This document shows, one piece after another, positions 7,391 to 13,460 of a DNA stretch of 13,460 bases. Both the position numbers and the translations under genes were made by a program. Origin of the DNA: an uncultured archaeon. GTDB lineage: Archaea; Asgardarchaeota; Hermodarchaeia; Hermodarchaeales; Hermodarchaeaceae. Each line of letters begins with the position of its first letter. The stretch's first letter is position 1. Below the pieces are notes generated by a model. That model did not search any database. It had not been told where the DNA came from and worked only from the letters and a program-made list of their open reading frames with translations. Location of the stretch: NCBI GenBank assembly GCA_964347045.1, contig CAYFXC010000016.1, positions 26,628-40,087 on the forward strand. The letters are read 5' to 3'.

Positions 7391-7734
7391 TAGTCAGACG
7401 CCTCCTTGGTTTTAACACGTTCCACAACAACAAAAGATACGGTCTTACTAAGTTGTCGACATTCAGCAACCCGAACAGTGTCTCCCACTTCAAGGGGAAT
7501 ACAGGGGGGGTGATGGGCAGCGGTCATGGAATGGCTGCGTGCGTATCGACGGTATTTCTTGATAAACTTTAGATAGTCACGGCGAATTGTTACTGTACCT
7601 CTCATCTTTGTACTGGCGACAACGCCTTCGATGAGACGCCCTCGAACAGGCAGTGTACCATGGAATGGACAATGAGGGTCTTCACATTCCTCTTCAGGTG
7701 GATTAACTTTTAGACCAATATTACGAGTTACCAT
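7390..7734 (-). CDS. rps17: 30S ribosomal protein uS17
   Basis: [33 protein letters not shown] and [13 protein letters not shown] motifs. Confidence 0.98.
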
Positions 7735-8015
7735 CGTAGTTTTTTCGCCCTCCTTAATCGTTCGGCAGGATGCCCTAATAGAGCACTTCCTTCAATTTCT
7801 GCTGTCTCGCCGCTAGGCAAAGACAGTTCAAAGGAACTTGATGTCTTCGGAATCTGACGGTTTCGAAGCCCATCAAATAGTGTAAGCATGTTATGTGTGT
7901 CATCCACAATGATCCCTGAAATCTTGTAAAGTGCGGGGTTCTTTGTCTGCTTCACTGCAGCGGATAGACCAATGAGAGGACGAAGTGCGAGCCAAGTGAA
8001 ATGAGGCATACTCAT
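7728..8015 (-). CDS. rnp1: RNase P protein component 1 (Rpp29/Pop4), divergent
   Basis: LIGL..V..NP..ISG.IVDDT.NML, IPK..FE and IEG..L.G.P.ER motifs; canonical position between rpl29 and rps17. Confidence 0.92.
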   Translation of the reverse strand: MSMPHFTWLALRPLIGLSAAVKQTKNPALYKISGIIVDDTHNMLTLFDGLRNRQIPKTSSSFELSLPSGETAEIEGSALLGHPAERLRRAKKLRW

Positions 8016-8245
8016 TCGCCTCCTCCGAAGCCTTCGACAGCTGATTGCCGCGCTTCTTCATTATTAACTGTAAGAATTCGAGCGATGTTTTTTCGAATCC
8101 CACGAATAACACCTGGGTTTTCCATGCCCGCCCCTGACATCATAGCAGCACGTTGTTTTGCGAGCTCGGCACGGAATTCTTCAAGCTTCCGTTCACGTTC
8201 TTCCAGATTCATGTTCCGGATTTCTTCCATCGTCAGTAATGCCAT
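8012..8245 (-). CDS. rpl29: 50S ribosomal protein uL29
   Basis: EIRNM..EER..KL.E.R.EL and ENPGVIRGIRKNIARILTV motifs; GGAGG Shine-Dalgarno. Confidence 0.96.
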   Translation of the reverse strand: MALLTMEEIRNMNLEERERKLEEFRAELAKQRAAMMSGAGMENPGVIRGIRKNIARILTVNNEEARQSAVEGFGGGE

Positions 8246-8268: not shown

Positions 8269-9579
8269 TCACTTTTTCGAAGACTCCTTCTTGGATTTTA
8301 AGGCCTTATCCTGGGACTCTTTGGATTTCGTCTTCTTTTCTTTCTTTGCCGCTTTCTCAATCTTTGCCTTGGTAGCAGTCTTGGACTTGGCTTTTGGTTT
8401 CTCTTCCGCCTTCGGTTTCTTGGGCTTAGTTTCCGCCTTCGGTTTTGGCTTGGCTTTTTCTTTCTTTGCCTTTGGCTCAGCCTTTGTCTTTGCTTTGGGT
8501 TCCACTTTGGCCTTGGGCTTCGCTTTTGGTTTCTCCTCTACCTTCACCCGCTTAGCCTTAGGTTTGCCTTTCGGTTTCTCTTCTACCTTTTCCTTCTTCA
8601 CTTTGGGTTTGGCTTTGGGCTTCTTTGGTTCTTCCTTTACTTTCTTTGGCTTGGGTTTGACCTTGGGCTTTTCAGGTTCCTTTTCCGTGGGGGGTTCAAC
8701 TTTGGGTTCCTTTTTGGGTTTTGCCTTCGGCTTTGGCTTTTCAGGCGCGGGTTTCTCTTCAGGAGGCGGAACCGCTTCGGGGACTGGTTCAGGTAAAGGT
8801 TCTGGTGTTGGTTCAGGCTCGGGGACTATCGGAGCTTCTGGTTCAGCTGACTCGGGAGCCGGTTCAGGACCTTCTTCCACAAACTCTTCGATTGAAGGAG
8901 CCTTTTCAATAGGAAGTTCTTCTTCAACAACCTCCATTTCAGTAGCATCAGGGGCGGGAGCAGGAATGACTTGAACTTCCACTTCTTTATGAATAATCAC
9001 CGGATGATCAGGTGCAACAGTGTCTGGTAGCATTATTCGGACCTGGACACCAAGAATACCGGGTTTCATAATTGCAAAAGCCCACCCGTGACTCACGGCT
9101 TTTCGTACCGGTTCACCAGTTTTGGCAACGAAGCCACTGCGGAATTTCTGATATCGCGCCCGACGACTGGTGAGTTTACCTGAGATGGAAATTTCCACAC
9201 CTTTGGCACCTGCTCCAATGATGCGGCGAAGAACACCATAGGCTGCACGACGGAAGTGGTCACCCCGTTCAAGACGTTGTGCTAATCGTTCAGCCATAAT
9301 GGGACCATTTAATTCTGGTACTTCTACTTCGCTTACTTCAATTTGTGGCGCTTCTAACCCGAAATCGTGTTCTAGCGTTTCAGTTAATTCGCGGACCGTG
9401 GTTCCTCGTCGACCAATAACCATACCAGGACGTGCAGCATAGACAACAACGCGCATTCCCAATGGTGTTTTTTGGAGATCTACGCCAGCATAACCTGCAC
9501 GTCGCAGCTCTCGACGCAAGTAGTCATTTACTTTGACTTTCAATAACCCACGGTTGATAAAATGATCTTCTGCTGGCAT
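8269..9579 (-). CDS. rps3: 30S ribosomal protein uS3 with about 230 aa low-complexity C-terminal extension
   Basis: KH domain KTPLG.R..RPGMVIGRRG, HFRRA, GAKGVEI.ISGKL and KPGILGVQVRIM.P motifs; then a Pro/Glu-rich tract and a Lys/Pro/Ala-rich tract. Confidence 0.97.
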   Translation of the reverse strand: MPAEDHFINRGLLKVKVNDYLRRELRRAGYAGVDLQKTPLGMRVVVYAARPGMVIGRRGTTVRELTETLEHDFGLEAPQIEVSEVEVPELNGPIMAERLAQRLERGDHFRRAAYGVLRRIIGAGAKGVEISISGKLTSRRARYQKFRSGFVAKTGEPVRKAVSHGWAFAIMKPGILGVQVRIMLPDTVAPDHPVIIHKEVEVQVIPAPAPDATEMEVVEEELPIEKAPSIEEFVEEGPEPAPESAEPEAPIVPEPEPTPEPLPEPVPEAVPPPEEKPAPEKPKPKAKPKKEPKVEPPTEKEPEKPKVKPKPKKVKEEPKKPKAKPKVKKEKVEEKPKGKPKAKRVKVEEKPKAKPKAKVEPKAKTKAEPKAKKEKAKPKPKAETKPKKPKAEEKPKAKSKTATKAKIEKAAKKEKKTKSKESQDKALKSKKESSKK

Positions 9580-9581
9580 TC

Positions 9582-10043
9582 TTACTCCTCCGTTAATACA
9601 ACCTCAACATGCACCAATTGCTCATTGAATTGAGTCGACCGCCCACGAGCGCGTTCGATAAAACGCTTGATAACCCGACCCGGATACGCTGAAATGTGGG
9701 TTACACGAAGCCGGTCAAGATCCAACCCCTTGTAATCTGCATTATTCTCCGCGTTAGTTAACACACGCATGATCTCTTTCGAAGCTTTCACCGGGTATCG
9801 ACCAGAATCGGCCTTATGCAGACCCTTGCGGTGTCCAACTTTCTTATCATGCCGTCGATAGGGCACCGCCTGACGCATAGCAATAACCGCTTCCAAATAG
9901 GTCTTTGCAGCTTCTAAACGGAGACCACGGAGTTCGTTACAGATTTCTCGAGCCGCTTTGGGTGACATTCGAAGCTCGCGTCCGCTAGCCCGTGCGGTTT
10001 TGTCTGGATCCAGACCAATGATGGAATAGCCGAATTGGGGCAT
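9582..10043 (-). CDS. rpl22: 50S ribosomal protein uL22
   Basis: MSPKAAREIC, AVPYRR..KKVGHRKG, GRYPVKA, NAENNA..KGLD and RARGRST motifs. Confidence 0.98.
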   Translation of the reverse strand: MPQFGYSIIGLDPDKTARASGRELRMSPKAAREICNELRGLRLEAAKTYLEAVIAMRQAVPYRRHDKKVGHRKGLHKADSGRYPVKASKEIMRVLTNAENNADYKGLDLDRLRVTHISAYPGRVIKRFIERARGRSTQFNEQLVHVEVVLTEE

Positions 10044-10176
10044 GAGGTATCCAACCTAGATTGTTACAACACTCACTTTGCAGGTTGCAGCAGCAAGAAC
10101 GAGAATCACAGGAACCCTCGGCGCTGGTCCGCACTCCCAAACAATGTGAGAGCGAAGAGAGTGAACCCCTGTGCCC

Positions 10177-10193
10177 TATATAAAAATTCTGCT
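10177..10193 (-). promoter_or_regulatory. Putative BRE/TATA promoter for rpl22 and downstream genes
   Basis: Minus strand AGCAGAA-TTTTTATATA; usual archaeal spacing predicts a start near 10153 and a leader of about 110 nt. Confidence 0.7.
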
Positions 10194-10208
10194 AGTCTGT
10201 GCCCCCCA

Positions 10209-10712
10209 CTAGTCCTCTTCTAATGCAAAGGGTTTAGACCCTGTTACAATCACTTGGGGAAGCACATCACGATGCGTCTGAAGAAACGTAACATCCGCCT
10301 TTTTATCTCGCCCCGCATCGGGTAACAATTCTGGAATCGTTTCCACGCGACTGCCAATCGGATACCATCGTTGACACTTCTCGCACCGCATAGCCCCCAC
10401 TTGAATCTCAATCCCATGGAAATATTCTACCAAGGGCACCAAATCCGCGGGCTCAGGCTTCTGCTTCGATAACGCCGCAAACACCTTCCGGGCCTTTGCC
10501 AACCGCTGATCAAAGATCTTATCCTTCGACAGATTATGCACCGGCTCCAGCGACGGCTCACTCAACACGCCCCGCTGATGATGCATAACCAACTCCCCTG
10601 CTAACCCTTTTTTATCCTTCAAGCGATTTTTTTTCACATCCACCACATAGGTAGTCAACGGATGCTCCTTACAAATCGGACACGCTAAAATATTAAGTAA
10701 CCAGGGCTTCAT
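10209..10712 (-). CDS. trm112: Trm112-family methyltransferase activator, long form with a central insertion
   Basis: MKPWLLNILACPICK..PL and EIQVGAMRCEKCQRWYPI..IPELLPD: split Zn knuckles with all four Cys present; GAGGTTGA Shine-Dalgarno. Confidence 0.9.
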   Translation of the reverse strand: MKPWLLNILACPICKEHPLTTYVVDVKKNRLKDKKGLAGELVMHHQRGVLSEPSLEPVHNLSKDKIFDQRLAKARKVFAALSKQKPEPADLVPLVEYFHGIEIQVGAMRCEKCQRWYPIGSRVETIPELLPDAGRDKKADVTFLQTHRDVLPQVIVTGSKPFALEED

Positions 10713-10755
10713 CGCGTCAACCTCTGAAAAACCAACTCTCCTTCGCAGCCAGCCC

Positions 10756-10763
10756 CTATTAAA
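10756..10763 (-). promoter_or_regulatory. Putative TATA box of trm112
   Basis: TTTAATAG on the minus strand, about 45-50 nt upstream of the ATG, in a divergent intergenic region. Confidence 0.45.
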
Positions 10764-10800
10764 CCTAGCTCTTTACTAACCAATACCCCGCAGTGCCCCA

Positions 10801-10817
10801 GCACGAATGTTTAAGCA
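10801..10817 (+). promoter_or_regulatory. Putative BRE/TATA of the hydrolase gene (leaderless transcript predicted)
   Basis: GCACGAATG-TTTAAGCA with the first T 29 nt upstream of the ATG at 10839. Confidence 0.5.
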
Positions 10818-10838
10818 CCATTGCTTCAAACAATAAGT

Positions 10839-11450
10839 ATGCCAACACTCCTTGCACACATCGCCATTGCAGGCCTCATCTGCCTTGTTCTCGTCAAAGA
10901 GCCCAAATGGGTGCTACTCCTCGCCTGGGTCGCCATTCTCCCCGACTTCGATATCTTCTGGGGATTACATCGCATCGCCTTCCATTCCCTCATTCTACTA
11001 GTGCCGATCAGCGTAGCCATCATCGGTATTACCTATAACTGGTTTCCGACCTACAAGGAACCCGCCTTCATCGTCGCCTTCTCCCTCCTTAGCCACACCA
11101 TCCTCGACTGGCTCCAATACTGGAACGCCCTTCTTTGGCCCATCCCCCTCGCCTTCTGGCTCAACCTCCACATCATCCTCCTCCCCACCAGCCCCATTCC
11201 CACTCCCCTCCTCAGCATCGGACCCATGATTGCCCCCCTCCACGTCCTCTTCGAACCCTCCACCGGCACCCTCTTCGACCCCTACACTACCACCCTTTTT
11301 ATTCTCTTCCTCGCAGTCGCCGTCATCCGCACTTGGCCCAACATCTTCAAAGGACTCCGAAAACCCCAAAACGATACCAACGCACCTACGACACCGGACG
11401 AACCAACCGATACCGACCCCGCCCCACCCGCACAAACACGCCCTGTTTAA
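10839..11450 (+). CDS. Membrane-bound metal-dependent hydrolase (YdjM/DUF457-like); start at ATG 10839
   Basis: N-terminal AH, LPDFD, HRIAFHSL and SHTILD motifs with hydrophobic helices between them; Pro/Thr-rich tail. Confidence 0.85.
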   Translation: MPTLLAHIAIAGLICLVLVKEPKWVLLLAWVAILPDFDIFWGLHRIAFHSLILLVPISVAIIGITYNWFPTYKEPAFIVAFSLLSHTILDWLQYWNALLWPIPLAFWLNLHIILLPTSPIPTPLLSIGPMIAPLHVLFEPSTGTLFDPYTTTLFILFLAVAVIRTWPNIFKGLRKPQNDTNAPTTPDEPTDTDPAPPAQTRPV

Positions 11451-13251
11451 TCAGCTTCGCCATCCGATCCGCCAAATACGCAGAATACCGATTCGCCACC
11501 AACCCCTGTAACACCAAATCCCCCTTCAACTTCCCCAGCGTTACCTCTCCGGCTTGGGCTTCCGCCAATTCAACAATACGATCTCGAACCGCCGCCGCAC
11601 TCTGCAACTTCACTGCAAACTCAGCATCCAACAACTTCTCCGACCGCCCCACCTCCCGCCCATGACGTTCCAACCACTCCTCAAACCCAATCGCTCCCAT
11701 ACTCAACTGCCGATACACCACCAAGTCCTTGCCCAAGAAATCACACTGCTCATACCGCGGCGCCACCTTCCTATCAAATCCCACCACGACCCCCCGCGAC
11801 ACCTCATCAATACCCCATTCCACCACCTCAGCCAGCGCAACGACCCACTTGCCATCCATCCACTGCCGACGCCCCTGTAAATACGCCCTTGTCGTCGTCT
11901 CCGGCAGCCCCGCCACCCGCGCCACGGCCGCCCCCGTTCCAAATTCATCCAGCAGCGCCTTTCGCAATTTGCTCCACCACCCCTCCTCCATCACCACCCG
12001 ATCCGCTACTCTCCATCCCCGCGCCCAAACCCGCTCCAAAAACGCTTCACCCTTCACCGTCGTCTGATACATTGTAGTAAACTTTTGTTTTTCCACCACC
12101 CGAATCCATCCTAACTTTCGCAACCGCTGCACCACCTTAAACACAAAATCCTCACGCACCACAAACCGCCGCGCCACCTCCCCCACAGACCCGACATCCC
12201 GCAGCCTAATCAACGTCAAAAAATCCAAATCAAACCCATCCAATCCCCGCTCTTGCCAAACCCTGTCACATTCTAACTGAAACGCCAACCGCTCCGCCCG
12301 CCCCGGATGCGTAAAACCAATGTGCTCCGCATACCACCGATACACCGGTCGATACACATCCAAAATAAACCAACTCCGAAACGCCTTCACCGCCCCCAGT
12401 GATTTCATCAATTCCTCACACTCATCATGAGGCAACGTCGCTCCCATCAACTCGAGAATGAGTGTCCGCATTTGCTCAAGAATTGTTGACCCACCGGATG
12501 TAAATCGAATCGAATGCGTCCCCACATGCCCATCATCATCCCCAAACGTCCGCACCATCTCTGCCTTCAAATCCAAAGGTAATTTTAAAAATACAGCTGG
12601 TAAAGATCCTGATTTCTCATCAAATCTAGCATCAGGATACAAGTAGCGAATTAGATAACCAATCCATTTTGTAAAAGCTACATATGAACGGGATTTTCCA
12701 CTTCGATCAGAATAACTACGAGTACAGTCTGAAACATCTCCGAACACTGCTGACATTTTGTGAAGAAACTGATTTCGGAGGAAGGCACTTCCATTAGTAT
12801 AGTGCGGAGTTTTTGAAGTGCCATATTCTTCAGTTAATGTTCCATCTCCAATTAAATGGATCACCAACCGAATAAGATGAACATCCTCTTTAATTGGTAG
12901 TCGCGGATTTCGTAAAATCCCTGATCTTCCATAACCTTTGATGGCGCGAATATTCCTTTCTATGTCAGAGAGAAGGTCTGGGTTTTCCTCCAATTCATTA
13001 TAGGTTTTAAGGAGTTTCAGCAGAATTTCAAGTTCGAGGAAAACTGGCTCCAACAAATCCTCGCGATAGTCTACAGCATATCGAGCTAGCAAATCAATCT
13101 CTACTTCAAGCTTCTTCGAAAGAGCACTCAAAGAGATATTGCTCAGAATTTTTGAAAAGAACGTTTTACCAAAATTTTGGTTCAATTGTACGAAAATATT
13201 CTTTCTAAGAAAATCAGTTATATGAAACACACGTAGGTTCTGCTTACTCAT
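11386..13251 (-). CDS. Free-standing two-motif LAGLIDADG (intein/DOD-type) endonuclease-like protein with N-terminal HTH and C-terminal wHTH-HTH-wHTH modules
   Basis: Motif 1 RLVIHLIGDG (D136) followed by YTN..L..F..VFG; LP..LP..K motif 2 MVRTFGDDDG (D240) followed by IRFTS..ILEQ..L; YAEHIGFTHP block; no intein splice termini (no N-terminal Cys/Ser block, no terminal HN). Confidence 0.8.
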   Translation of the reverse strand: MSKQNLRVFHITDFLRKNIFVQLNQNFGKTFFSKILSNISLSALSKKLEVEIDLLARYAVDYREDLLEPVFLELEILLKLLKTYNELEENPDLLSDIERNIRAIKGYGRSGILRNPRLPIKEDVHLIRLVIHLIGDGTLTEEYGTSKTPHYTNGSAFLRNQFLHKMSAVFGDVSDCTRSYSDRSGKSRSYVAFTKWIGYLIRYLYPDARFDEKSGSLPAVFLKLPLDLKAEMVRTFGDDDGHVGTHSIRFTSGGSTILEQMRTLILELMGATLPHDECEELMKSLGAVKAFRSWFILDVYRPVYRWYAEHIGFTHPGRAERLAFQLECDRVWQERGLDGFDLDFLTLIRLRDVGSVGEVARRFVVREDFVFKVVQRLRKLGWIRVVEKQKFTTMYQTTVKGEAFLERVWARGWRVADRVVMEEGWWSKLRKALLDEFGTGAAVARVAGLPETTTRAYLQGRRQWMDGKWVVALAEVVEWGIDEVSRGVVVGFDRKVAPRYEQCDFLGKDLVVYRQLSMGAIGFEEWLERHGREVGRSEKLLDAEFAVKLQSAAAVRDRIVELAEAQAGEVTLGKLKGDLVLQGLVANRYSAYLADRMAKLIKQGVFVRVGRGRYRLVRPVS

Positions 13252-13253
13252 AT

Positions 13254-13269
13254 TTCATCGAAAGATGAA
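13254..13269. repeat. 6-bp inverted repeat (hairpin) immediately upstream of the endonuclease start codon
   Basis: TTCATC-GAAA-GATGAA; ends 2 nt before the ATG at 13251. Confidence 0.7.
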
Positions 13270-13280
13270 TTAAAAGGAGA

Positions 13281-13288
13281 TACTTAAA
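13281..13288 (-). promoter_or_regulatory. Putative TATA box of the LAGLIDADG gene
   Basis: TTTAAGTA on the minus strand, 30-37 nt upstream of the ATG, framed by a GGAG/CTCC inverted repeat. Confidence 0.55.
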
Positions 13289-13309
13289 CTCCACAATTAC
13301 AATGAATCT

Positions 13310-13338
13310 AATCTATATAGATTTTCAAAATCTATATA
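13310..13338. repeat. Overlapping perfect palindromes directly after the rps19 stop
   Basis: TATATAGATTTT-C-AAAATCTATATA (13314-13338, 12-bp arms) overlaps AATCTATATAGATT (13310-13323). Confidence 0.9.
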
Positions 13339-13339
13339 T

Positions 13340-13460
13340 TTATTTGAGAGGTACATATTGGCTTCCCCTTGTAGCTCCTATGCCGGGGTTGCCGTGGCGG
13401 ACGGTTTTGTTGGTGGGGGCGTATTCGCCGAGGTAGTGGCCGATGTGTTCGATTTTGATG
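13340..13460 (-). CDS. rps19: 30S ribosomal protein uS19, 3' end (partial, runs off the window; not in the ORF track)
   Basis: Hand translation ...[39 protein letters not shown], matching the archaeal/eukaryotic uS19 C-terminus IGHYLGE..HG.PG.GAT..S..VPLK. Confidence 0.96.

Follow-up and report, generated by a model that had tools for sequence, protein, structure and literature searches.

For the WHO elements found at FBA1 in Torulaspora and Lachancea yeasts, Coughlan et al. (2020, PMC7282813) report cutting that is specific to certain alleles, and conversion tracts that are asymmetric. In these elements, a LAGLIDADG-type gene lies directly downstream of a housekeeping gene whose variable 3' end travels with the nuclease, an arrangement shared by the archaeal locus described here. 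This locus is contained in a 13,460-nucleotide (nt) stretch of DNA (the window; positions 26,628 to 40,087 of contig CAYFXC010000016.1, assembly GCA_964347045.1) from an uncultured archaeon of the Hermodarchaeaceae, in which a predicted LAGLIDADG homing-type nuclease of 621 amino acids (aa), termed E621 in the following, is encoded behind rps19. As in the WHO elements, the 3' end of rps19 is recoded, variable, sharply bordered and linked to the nuclease gene, and the affected tracts are of unequal length (2.3 versus 0.35 kb). Unlike in the WHO elements, stacks of old tails and clusters of nuclease genes were not found, E621 being a single-copy gene in this assembly, and the exchanged unit appears limited to the N-terminal half of the nuclease; moreover, the host is an archaeon and the target rps19. 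In the paper on the WHO elements, neither strand skew nor codon usage nor base composition is mentioned (PMC7282813). At the archaeal locus, the two sides of an unskewed core carry strong skews of opposite sign, a mirror pattern that looks like a lasting scar of repeated break repair and is apparently undescribed; in the literature on skew or strand asymmetry in connection with homing endonucleases, inteins and co-conversion, with most subscription journals outside the scope of the search, no such footprint was found. We consider it probable that the locus is a hot spot of recurrent nuclease-targeted breaks and repair synthesis, set by E621 behind rps19.

GC skew was determined in 500-nt windows over the 2.58-Mb assembly (mean 0.001, standard deviation 0.112, 0.1% quantile -0.449). 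At the locus, it is close to 0 at 9750–10200, and in a 300-nt profile it ranges from -0.26 to -0.60 across 10200–12600 and returns to about 0 across 12600–13350, with a GC content of.50–.62 in this left tract compared to.43 genome-wide. On the plus strand, the base frequencies are A.244, C.399, G.145 and T.212 at 10250–12560, A.329, C.193, G.166 and T.312 in the AT-rich, unskewed part at 12561–13380, and A.087, C.163, G.438 and T.312 in the G/T-rich end of the window at 13381–13460. The left patch extends over 2.3 kb and is exceeded in length by only one other patch of this kind in the assembly. The contig, C16, ends with the window, and an exact 55-nt overlap with the end of contig C41 completes rps19; because the two contigs join in this way, the right tract, G-rich on the plus strand, can be followed through rps19 for about 350 nt, from codon 126 to around codon 10, ending at the 5' end of the gene. 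The epimerase gene upstream of rps19 is of normal composition. The two tracts thus differ in length (about 2.3 kb on the left, about 0.35 kb on the right), and on both sides the strand whose 3' end faces the core is C/A-rich. This is the geometry that an earlier note on this DNA had described from hand counts in eight windows of 60 nt, all of which we could reproduce (e.g. C34/G3 at 11161–11220 and C11/G29 at 13381–13440). Its expectation that the G-rich plus strand continues to the right of the window is borne out on C41; the decay over a few kb into rps19, rpl2 and rpl23 that it had also predicted is not, since only about 350 nt of rps19 are covered, and rpl2 and rpl23 lie on contig C7 with normal composition. 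The features of the locus, all encoded on the minus strand except the YdjM-like gene, are as follows.

9582–10043, minus strand: rpl22 (Pfam Ribosomal_L22, E 2.3e-25), the outer limit of the left tract.
10209–10712, minus strand: Trm112-like gene (Pfam Trm112p, E 6.9e-11), in the outer, decaying part of the left tract.
10713–10820: non-coding spacer, skewed (plus strand A31, C41, G14, T22).
10821–11450, plus strand: gene for a YdjM-like membrane protein (Pfam YdjM, E 5.9e-7, 29.6 bits against a cut-off of 29).
11386–12560, minus strand: C-terminal 390 aa of E621, from motif 2 through the winged-helix-like region; main left tract.
12520–12546, minus strand: left border of the core, the FGDDDGHVG codons (LAGLIDADG motif 2), with near-invariant nucleotides in alignments across species.
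12561–13251, minus strand: N-terminal 230 aa of E621, including LAGLIDADG motif 1 (IGDG, residues 134–137); AT-rich hypervariable core.
13252–13339: AT-rich spacer of 88 nt between rps19 and E621, part of the core and not alignable between most species.
13340–13381, minus strand: rps19 tail (last 13 codons and stop), with normal codon usage; right end of the core.
13382–13460, minus strand, continuing on C41 to about codon 10: rps19 body (PF00203 matches on C16 and C41); right tract.

It seemed conceivable that a pattern at the end of a contig stems from foreign DNA of odd composition or from an assembly or binning artefact, as the contig ends inside rps19, like that of another congener, and the GC content departs from the genome mean. 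However, the pattern is found in at least eight independent assemblies, which differ in isolate and contig names, and C16 and C41 are joined by an exact 55-nt overlap, which rules this explanation out; in addition, the skew covers only parts of genes that belong to the conserved set of the host, and a mirror polarity would not be expected for transferred DNA. We therefore assign this possibility a negligible probability. The contig break itself falls within rps19 (window 13382–13460 and C41:6229–6582), as does the end of contig C19 in congener G012, and in three further congeners rps19 was not found; the locus seems hard to assemble, perhaps through core cassettes that vary within populations. 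Other patches with keto/amino skew are located at or near contig ends (C13:1–650, C19:1–650, C15:46600–47900, C8:121–129 kb and C26:21–27 kb), as if further cores had broken the assembly. The ribosomal operon is split in this lineage, with rpl3-rpl4-rpl23-rpl2 at C7:125251–128067, followed by glycine-cleavage-type genes, and a glycosylation gene cluster is located upstream of rps19.

The bias acts at the level of the strand and not of the gene, because it is complementary in genes of opposite orientation: third positions are C-rich in the YdjM-like gene (C.60, G.10; four-fold C.42–.66, the gene being kept in six species), G-rich in the C-terminal half of E621 (G.60, C.04), where the coding strand is G/T-rich, and C-rich in rps19 (C.64, G.09, T.04). 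Nor is it a codon-level effect, since the non-coding spacer at 10713–10820 is skewed too (C41/G14). At four-fold degenerate sites, the C-terminal half of E621 carries 70% G, with G+T of.82–.95 in all eight species in which the locus was compared, and rps19 codons 10–126 reach C.95, with A.04, G.02 and T 0. Towards the left, the Trm112-like gene still shows G.46 and C.10 at third positions of its coding strand and four-fold G of.56, its orthologues in genus g2 being normal; rpl22 is ordinary at four-fold sites (A.17, C.17, G.29, T.36), as are rpl22, rps3 and rpl29 at third positions. Within the core, the N-terminal half of E621 has a GC content of.31–.42, a skew of about 0 and four-fold A of.37 and T of.36. 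Both borders of the skew are intragenic, after rps19 codon 126 (AAC CCC GGC / ATA GGA GCT, the slash marking the border) and at the FGDDDGHVG codons of E621, around which silent sites, in gene orientation, are A/T-rich and variable on the 5' side and G-rich on the 3' side. First and second codon positions are shifted as well, resulting in altered amino-acid use: the C-terminal half of E621 contains 11.8% V, 9.5% G, 11.0% R and 3.1% W, compared to 4.8, 5.2, 7.0 and 0.4% in the N-terminal half, and the YdjM-like protein 12.0% P, 16.7% L and 9.1% T. The earlier note had read the C excess over genes of both orientations as speaking against codon preference and had suspected an effect on amino acids, and the complementary silent-site skew, the skewed non-coding DNA and the altered composition of these proteins agree with it on both counts. 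Codon preference or expression as the cause is ruled out by the complementary bias on opposite strands, the non-coding skew and the flips within genes; the description as a strand-level, position-dependent process centred on the nuclease and the variable cassette holds.

The same observations bear on transcription-associated asymmetry, including R-loops, or selection on mRNA or codon usage, as the source of the skew. An excess of G+T on the coding strand is a known mark of transcription-associated mutation and fits the C-terminal half of E621 and the Trm112-like gene, but the coding-strand bias is the opposite in rps19, the YdjM-like gene and, at further sites treated below, actin, the N-extein of PolD and the N-terminal part of mcm. 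Furthermore, E621, PolD, mcm and a hydrogenase subunit gene each contain a flip within one transcription unit, and non-coding DNA is skewed. Together with the behaviour of mcm described below, this makes an origin in transcription highly improbable. As side observations, at 8269–8970 (minus strand), rps3 ends in a C-terminal extension of about 230 aa with many K, P and E residues, which results in a plus-strand AT skew of -0.7 to -0.8, and the 3' ends of the convergent YdjM-like and E621 reading frames share 65 nt (11386–11450). Searches for RNA genes at the locus gave no Rfam match and no tRNA.

The presumed agent of recurrent breakage, E621, is encoded by an open reading frame (ORF) at 11386–13251 on the minus strand, which starts 88 nt past the rps19 stop (13340). 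Two motifs, I134-G135-D136-G137 and F236-G237-D238-D239-D240-G241, are invariant in eight orthologues; the protein is full-length in 11 of the 18 family genomes searched, and the ORF is free of stops in eight species. By sequence, E621 did not match the Pfam LAGLIDADG families even at E values up to 5, and its nuclease part gave no sequence match in Pfam, NCBIfam or the PDB; for the C-terminal half, only weak matches of the MarR/TrmB/PadR type were obtained. A predicted model of residues 95–330 has a mean pLDDT (predicted local distance difference test) of 68.7, with about 90 in its second half and poor values in the first. In a Foldseek search with this model, the matches examined were all LAGLIDADG proteins, led by TliVMA, PI-PfuI, PI-SceI, I-DmoI, I-WcaI and I-SceI and including WhiA; the best match had an E value of 7e-4 and a probability of 1.0, at TM scores of only.35–.47. 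With two motifs and a predicted fold that matches the twice-repeated alpha-beta-beta-alpha-beta-beta-alpha arrangement of these enzymes, E621 is most simply read as a putative LAGLIDADG homing-type nuclease. Like the monomeric two-motif enzymes I-DmoI, I-SceI and PI-PfuI, it has two motifs with conserved acidic residues, and the predicted fold ranks these enzymes first. Unlike this class, it carries a variable N-terminal extension of 100 aa and a winged-helix-like C-terminal extension of 290 aa, lacks a Pfam or PDB sequence match, and is fixed at one syntenic position in two genera instead of occurring sporadically.

The gene order epimerase, rps19, E621, YdjM, Trm112, rpl22, rps3 is kept in six species and partly in two more, and the skew pattern recurs at the syntenic locus in eight species of Hermodarchaeota, with both borders at the same nucleotide in all of them (rps19 codon 126/127 and motif 2 of E621). 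Between genera, the four-fold identity in the C-terminal half of E621 equals that expected for independent sequences (.61 versus.59,.36 versus.34 and.40 versus.41); since silent sites are thus saturated, the skew must be maintained in each lineage and is not simply inherited. Constant across the lineages is the depletion of A+C on the E621-coding strand (A+C.05–.22). Its G:T ratio varies, with four-fold G of.60–.84 in genus g1 and the g2 species of locus L034, and G of about.47, T of about.40–.44 and A+C of at most.15 in the g2 species of loci L032 and L033. Because the A+C depletion is constant while the G:T ratio varies, the underlying asymmetry is one of transitions on the E621 strand (A to G, C to T), seen most clearly in two of the three g2 species (loci L032 and L033), with a GC-raising component added in some lineages. 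In 27 other Asgard genomes, rps19 has a normal four-fold C content (.03–.49); in another Hermodarchaeota genome, it is.98.

These figures bring up a second way in which the same hot spot could have become skewed, namely strand-specific biased gene conversion, in which mismatches in heteroduplex DNA are corrected with a bias and no new mutations arise from repair synthesis. It would account for the raised GC content of the tracts (.50–.62 versus.43), and for the four-fold sites of genus g1, which are driven to G or C, a classic mark of GC-biased conversion; such a drive also reaches more extreme compositions than mutation bias, and exchange of the core between lineages, as described next, is in line with it. 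Base-specific correction alone, however, is strand-symmetric and yields no skew, such that an extra strand rule would be needed, and the tracts of L032 and L033 are about equally rich in G and T, without a four-fold GC gain. Biased conversion is a serious variant of the hot-spot explanation, but we regard it as unlikely.

The unskewed core extends over 12561–13381, with 230 residues of E621, or, drawn slightly differently, over 12640–13400, with E621 residues 1 to about 205; besides this N-terminal part of the nuclease, it contains the end of rps19 and the spacer. In genus g2, the nucleotide identity of the core is.37–.6, compared to.8–.93 in the flanks. The relation is reversed between the g1 species of loci L028 (genome G003) and L029 (genome G008), where the core is.83–.97 identical (.93 at four-fold sites), but the C-terminal half of E621 only.64 and the third positions of the epimerase gene only.41. 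Because core and flank identities are discordant in both genera, the core has a separate history, as would be expected of an exchanged module. In its rps19 part, the protein sequence of the 13-codon tail is kept, with every silent site variable between species, and the approximately 115 codons ahead of the tail are near-invariant at the nucleotide level across eight species, right up to the border. Judged from these alignments, the core is a hypervariable cassette whose borders are sharp and conserved, and it behaves as an exchangeable unit. Two short repeats lie within or across it: a tandem pair of AT-rich 19-nt copies at 13310–13347 (AATCTATATAGATTTTCAA, then AATCTATATATTTATTTGA), the second of which extends 8 nt into the stop and final codons of rps19 and which could be a promoter or binding site, and a 15-nt inverted repeat, complementary at 13 of 15 positions, between 11920–11934 in the C-terminal half of E621 and 13385–13399 at the invariant rps19 border (CGCCACGGCAACCCC), which may be due to chance in C-rich DNA or represent a second copy of the target half-site.

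The earlier note had raised the question whether similar flips coincide with other LAGLIDADG genes. When the genome was scanned for pairs of tracts that differ in the sign of their skew, the four highest scores (0.35 or more) all belonged to flips whose plus strand is C-rich to the left of the flip point and G-rich to the right of it, and all four are located at LAGLIDADG-type genes; a fifth, slightly weaker flip is of the same kind.

Flip 1, score at least 0.35: the E621/rps19 locus.
Flip 2, score at least 0.35: the gene for PolD-DP2, with an intein matching Pfam LAGLIDADG_3 and Intein_splicing.
Flip 3, C3:92 kb, score at least 0.35: 656-aa ORF with LAGLIDADG-like motifs, beside a hydrogenase/complex-I large-subunit gene.
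Flip 4, C30:4 kb, score at least 0.35: 377-aa ORF behind actin; by language model, its closest neighbours are LAGLIDADG_3 clusters without exception.
Flip 5, C1:237 kb, score 0.33: free LAGLIDADG_3 gene.

The best flip of reverse polarity scores 0.31, and the polarity is independent of the orientation of the nuclease gene. The mirror pattern in PolD is kept in congener G008. From their motifs and language-model neighbours, the ORFs on C30 and C3 are likely LAGLIDADG proteins as well; profile comparison of E621 with them revealed weak motif-level similarity only. Weaker flips (0.30–0.34) at C32, C12, C5, C4 and C16:25325, in genes such as those for SecY, a GTPase, a nitroreductase and a GNAT acetyltransferase, were considered as instances of the same phenomenon and rejected, as they are at ordinary genes and lack the keto/amino signature. 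The coincidence of flips with nuclease genes accordingly stands for the four strongest cases and C1:237 kb, but it does not extend to inteins at large: most of the intein loci tested are unskewed, which rules out that LAGLIDADG inteins are skewed in general. On C30:4301–14150 (L004), behind actin and the ORF of 377 aa, there are at least five further patches of the same sign, including 7451–8200, 8501–9100, 9751–10550 and 13451–14150, a series that suggests stacked units.

A particularly informative comparison is offered by mcm. In this genome, the gene (C1:205634–207715) has no intein, and its third positions switch, in a weaker flip, at the P-loop motif GDPGTAKS: the 68 codons ending with this motif have third positions C37 A19 T9 G3, the following 55 codons T30 A11 G10 C4. 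In G008, mcm contains three inteins (after GDPGTAKS, ADRGTA and AMEQH) and is split over two contigs (L037 and L039). There, the same segment of 55 residues, identical in protein sequence, has third positions C28 A13 G8 T6, and the G/T-rich tract starts only past the third intein. Because an identical segment is T-ending here and C-ending in G008, the bias is set by the side of the homing site and not by the gene or its product. A mirror flip, which the earlier note had proposed to look for at other LAGLIDADG genes or variable loci, is also present at an empty intein site. This result speaks against transcription or codon selection and also against biased conversion, as the intein-free mcm tract is rich in T and not in G.

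The five nuclease-associated flips and mcm also permit an evaluation of local bidirectional DNA synthesis from the core, be it from an origin or through nuclease- or nick-primed strand displacement or recombination-dependent replication, with the displaced single strand turning G/T-rich. The change from C/A-rich on the left to G/T-rich on the right has the polarity of an origin for both GC and AT skew and is of the same keto/amino character, and the AT-rich core contains a short tandem repeat; in break-induced replication, nascent single strands are a known mutation target (PMC9262586). Compared to origin skew, however, the amplitude is 5–10 times larger and the skew is gone within 0.35–2.3 kb, without a long-range component: 5-kb bins revealed no consistent long-range shift on C1, C3 or the joined C16 and C41. 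At least five such sites occur per 2.6 Mb, each at a nuclease or homing site, and genes for orc1/cdc6 (Cdc6_C matches) are confined to C1 at 66, 79 and 205 kb, at least 30 kb away from the five nuclease-gene flips and absent from the window contig, although the 205-kb copy is located about 2 kb from the weaker mcm flip. Finally, the flip point in mcm differs between two congeners with intein occupancy. We consider local replication very unlikely as the explanation. The keto/amino character as such is shared with the strand asymmetry of vertebrate mitochondrial DNA.

We return to recurrent nuclease-targeted breaks and repair synthesis, which we favour. According to this model, E621 would cleave alleles whose rps19 tail differs, at or close to the sharp boundary CCCGGC/AT (AACCCCGGC/AT), and a homologous copy would serve as the template for repair. 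To either side of the break, resection would remove the 5'-ended strand, which would then be re-made, and the 3'-ended strand would be retained. The re-made strand would repeatedly gain G and T, either because the repair polymerase makes G.T misinsertions, which turn A into G and C into T on the strand it makes, or through deamination-type damage to the new or displaced single strand, whereby the retained strand would turn C/A-rich. As GC is raised in the tracts, a GC-raising conversion bias may be superimposed. Many such cycles would drive silent sites near fixation and shift the amino-acid make-up of the flanking genes. Exchange would involve the rps19 tail and, jointly with it, the N-terminal half of E621. 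The earlier note had already suggested repeated break resection and repair synthesis; a strand-level process at the nuclease and cassette is what we observe, while the cause, including the breaks, the cut site and the chemistry of the bias, we infer.

The closest mechanistic parallel is break-associated mutagenesis, in which asymmetry is mirror-symmetric about the break over 1–2 kb on each side and is ascribed to single-stranded intermediates and gap-filling (PMC7615360, PMC9262586). The mirror symmetry about a defined site over 1–2 kb is shared, but what is raised there is the rate of new mutations, as opposed to a near-fixed base composition here. Several points weigh against the break-repair model or constrain it. 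First, the polarity runs counter to that reported for human meiotic hot spots, where a 2-kb asymmetry is ascribed to damage on resected 3' tails (PMC7615360), and corresponds to that of the nascent strand in break-induced replication (PMC9262586); the model must therefore place the bias on the re-made, nascent strand. Second, to reach 95% C at four-fold sites, the bias would have to be very strong, or break repair so common that it overrides normal replication errors. Third, tblastn revealed no second rps19 tail anywhere in the assembly, and congener G001 has a fully C-skewed rps19 without an adjoining E621. In this 83%-complete genome, E621 was not found; on G001:C85:1–7000 (L059), rps19 is followed by a convergent gene for a 649-aa secreted-type protein and by an FKBP-type gene, not by E621 and rpl22. 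Fourth, skew is missing at seven of the eight Pfam-detectable LAGLIDADG intein loci in G008 and at all 12 tested in two other Asgard genomes, and of the intein loci of the present genome, that on C14 is weakly skewed and that at C1:146 kb unskewed. In PolD, about 1 kb of the skewed tract lies within the intein, which would not be expected from simple cutting at the insertion site. Lastly, polarisation of substitutions against relatives, a check proposed in the earlier note, did not yield the expected gain: parsimony on terminal branches counted more losses than gains of G (122 versus 22 and 168 versus 39). This net loss may be a bias of the method, or the process may be episodic and occur in bursts; since the skew is so strong, we take the polarisation to be unreliable.

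Considering all sites jointly, Hermodarchaeota may possess nuclease-marked sites at which break repair is so frequent that it overwrites the silent positions, and in part the proteins, of the essential genes for rps19, actin, PolD, mcm and a hydrogenase subunit, mirror-symmetrically and with fixed polarity. Composition would then record active, past and empty homing sites, and the element at rps19 would represent a homing system of the tail-swapping kind in an archaeon, which exchanges a target half-site and the matching nuclease half as one cassette. This wider picture we put forward tentatively; in a bolder version, the nucleases would prime local recombination-dependent DNA synthesis with a cellular role. 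If true, it would be the first case known to us of homing or break repair leaving a near-saturated, strand-specific compositional footprint, under a pressure strong enough to alter amino acids of essential proteins. From sequence alone, the footprint would make it possible to locate homing sites in uncultured archaea, whether still active or no longer so, such as the empty site in mcm, along with the points at which they are cut. It would also give natural access to the spectrum of errors or damage in archaeal recombinational repair, with a polarity unlike that of human meiotic hot spots. For Asgard phylogenomics, markers such as rps19, PolD, mcm and actin show a strong local bias in composition that can lead trees astray.

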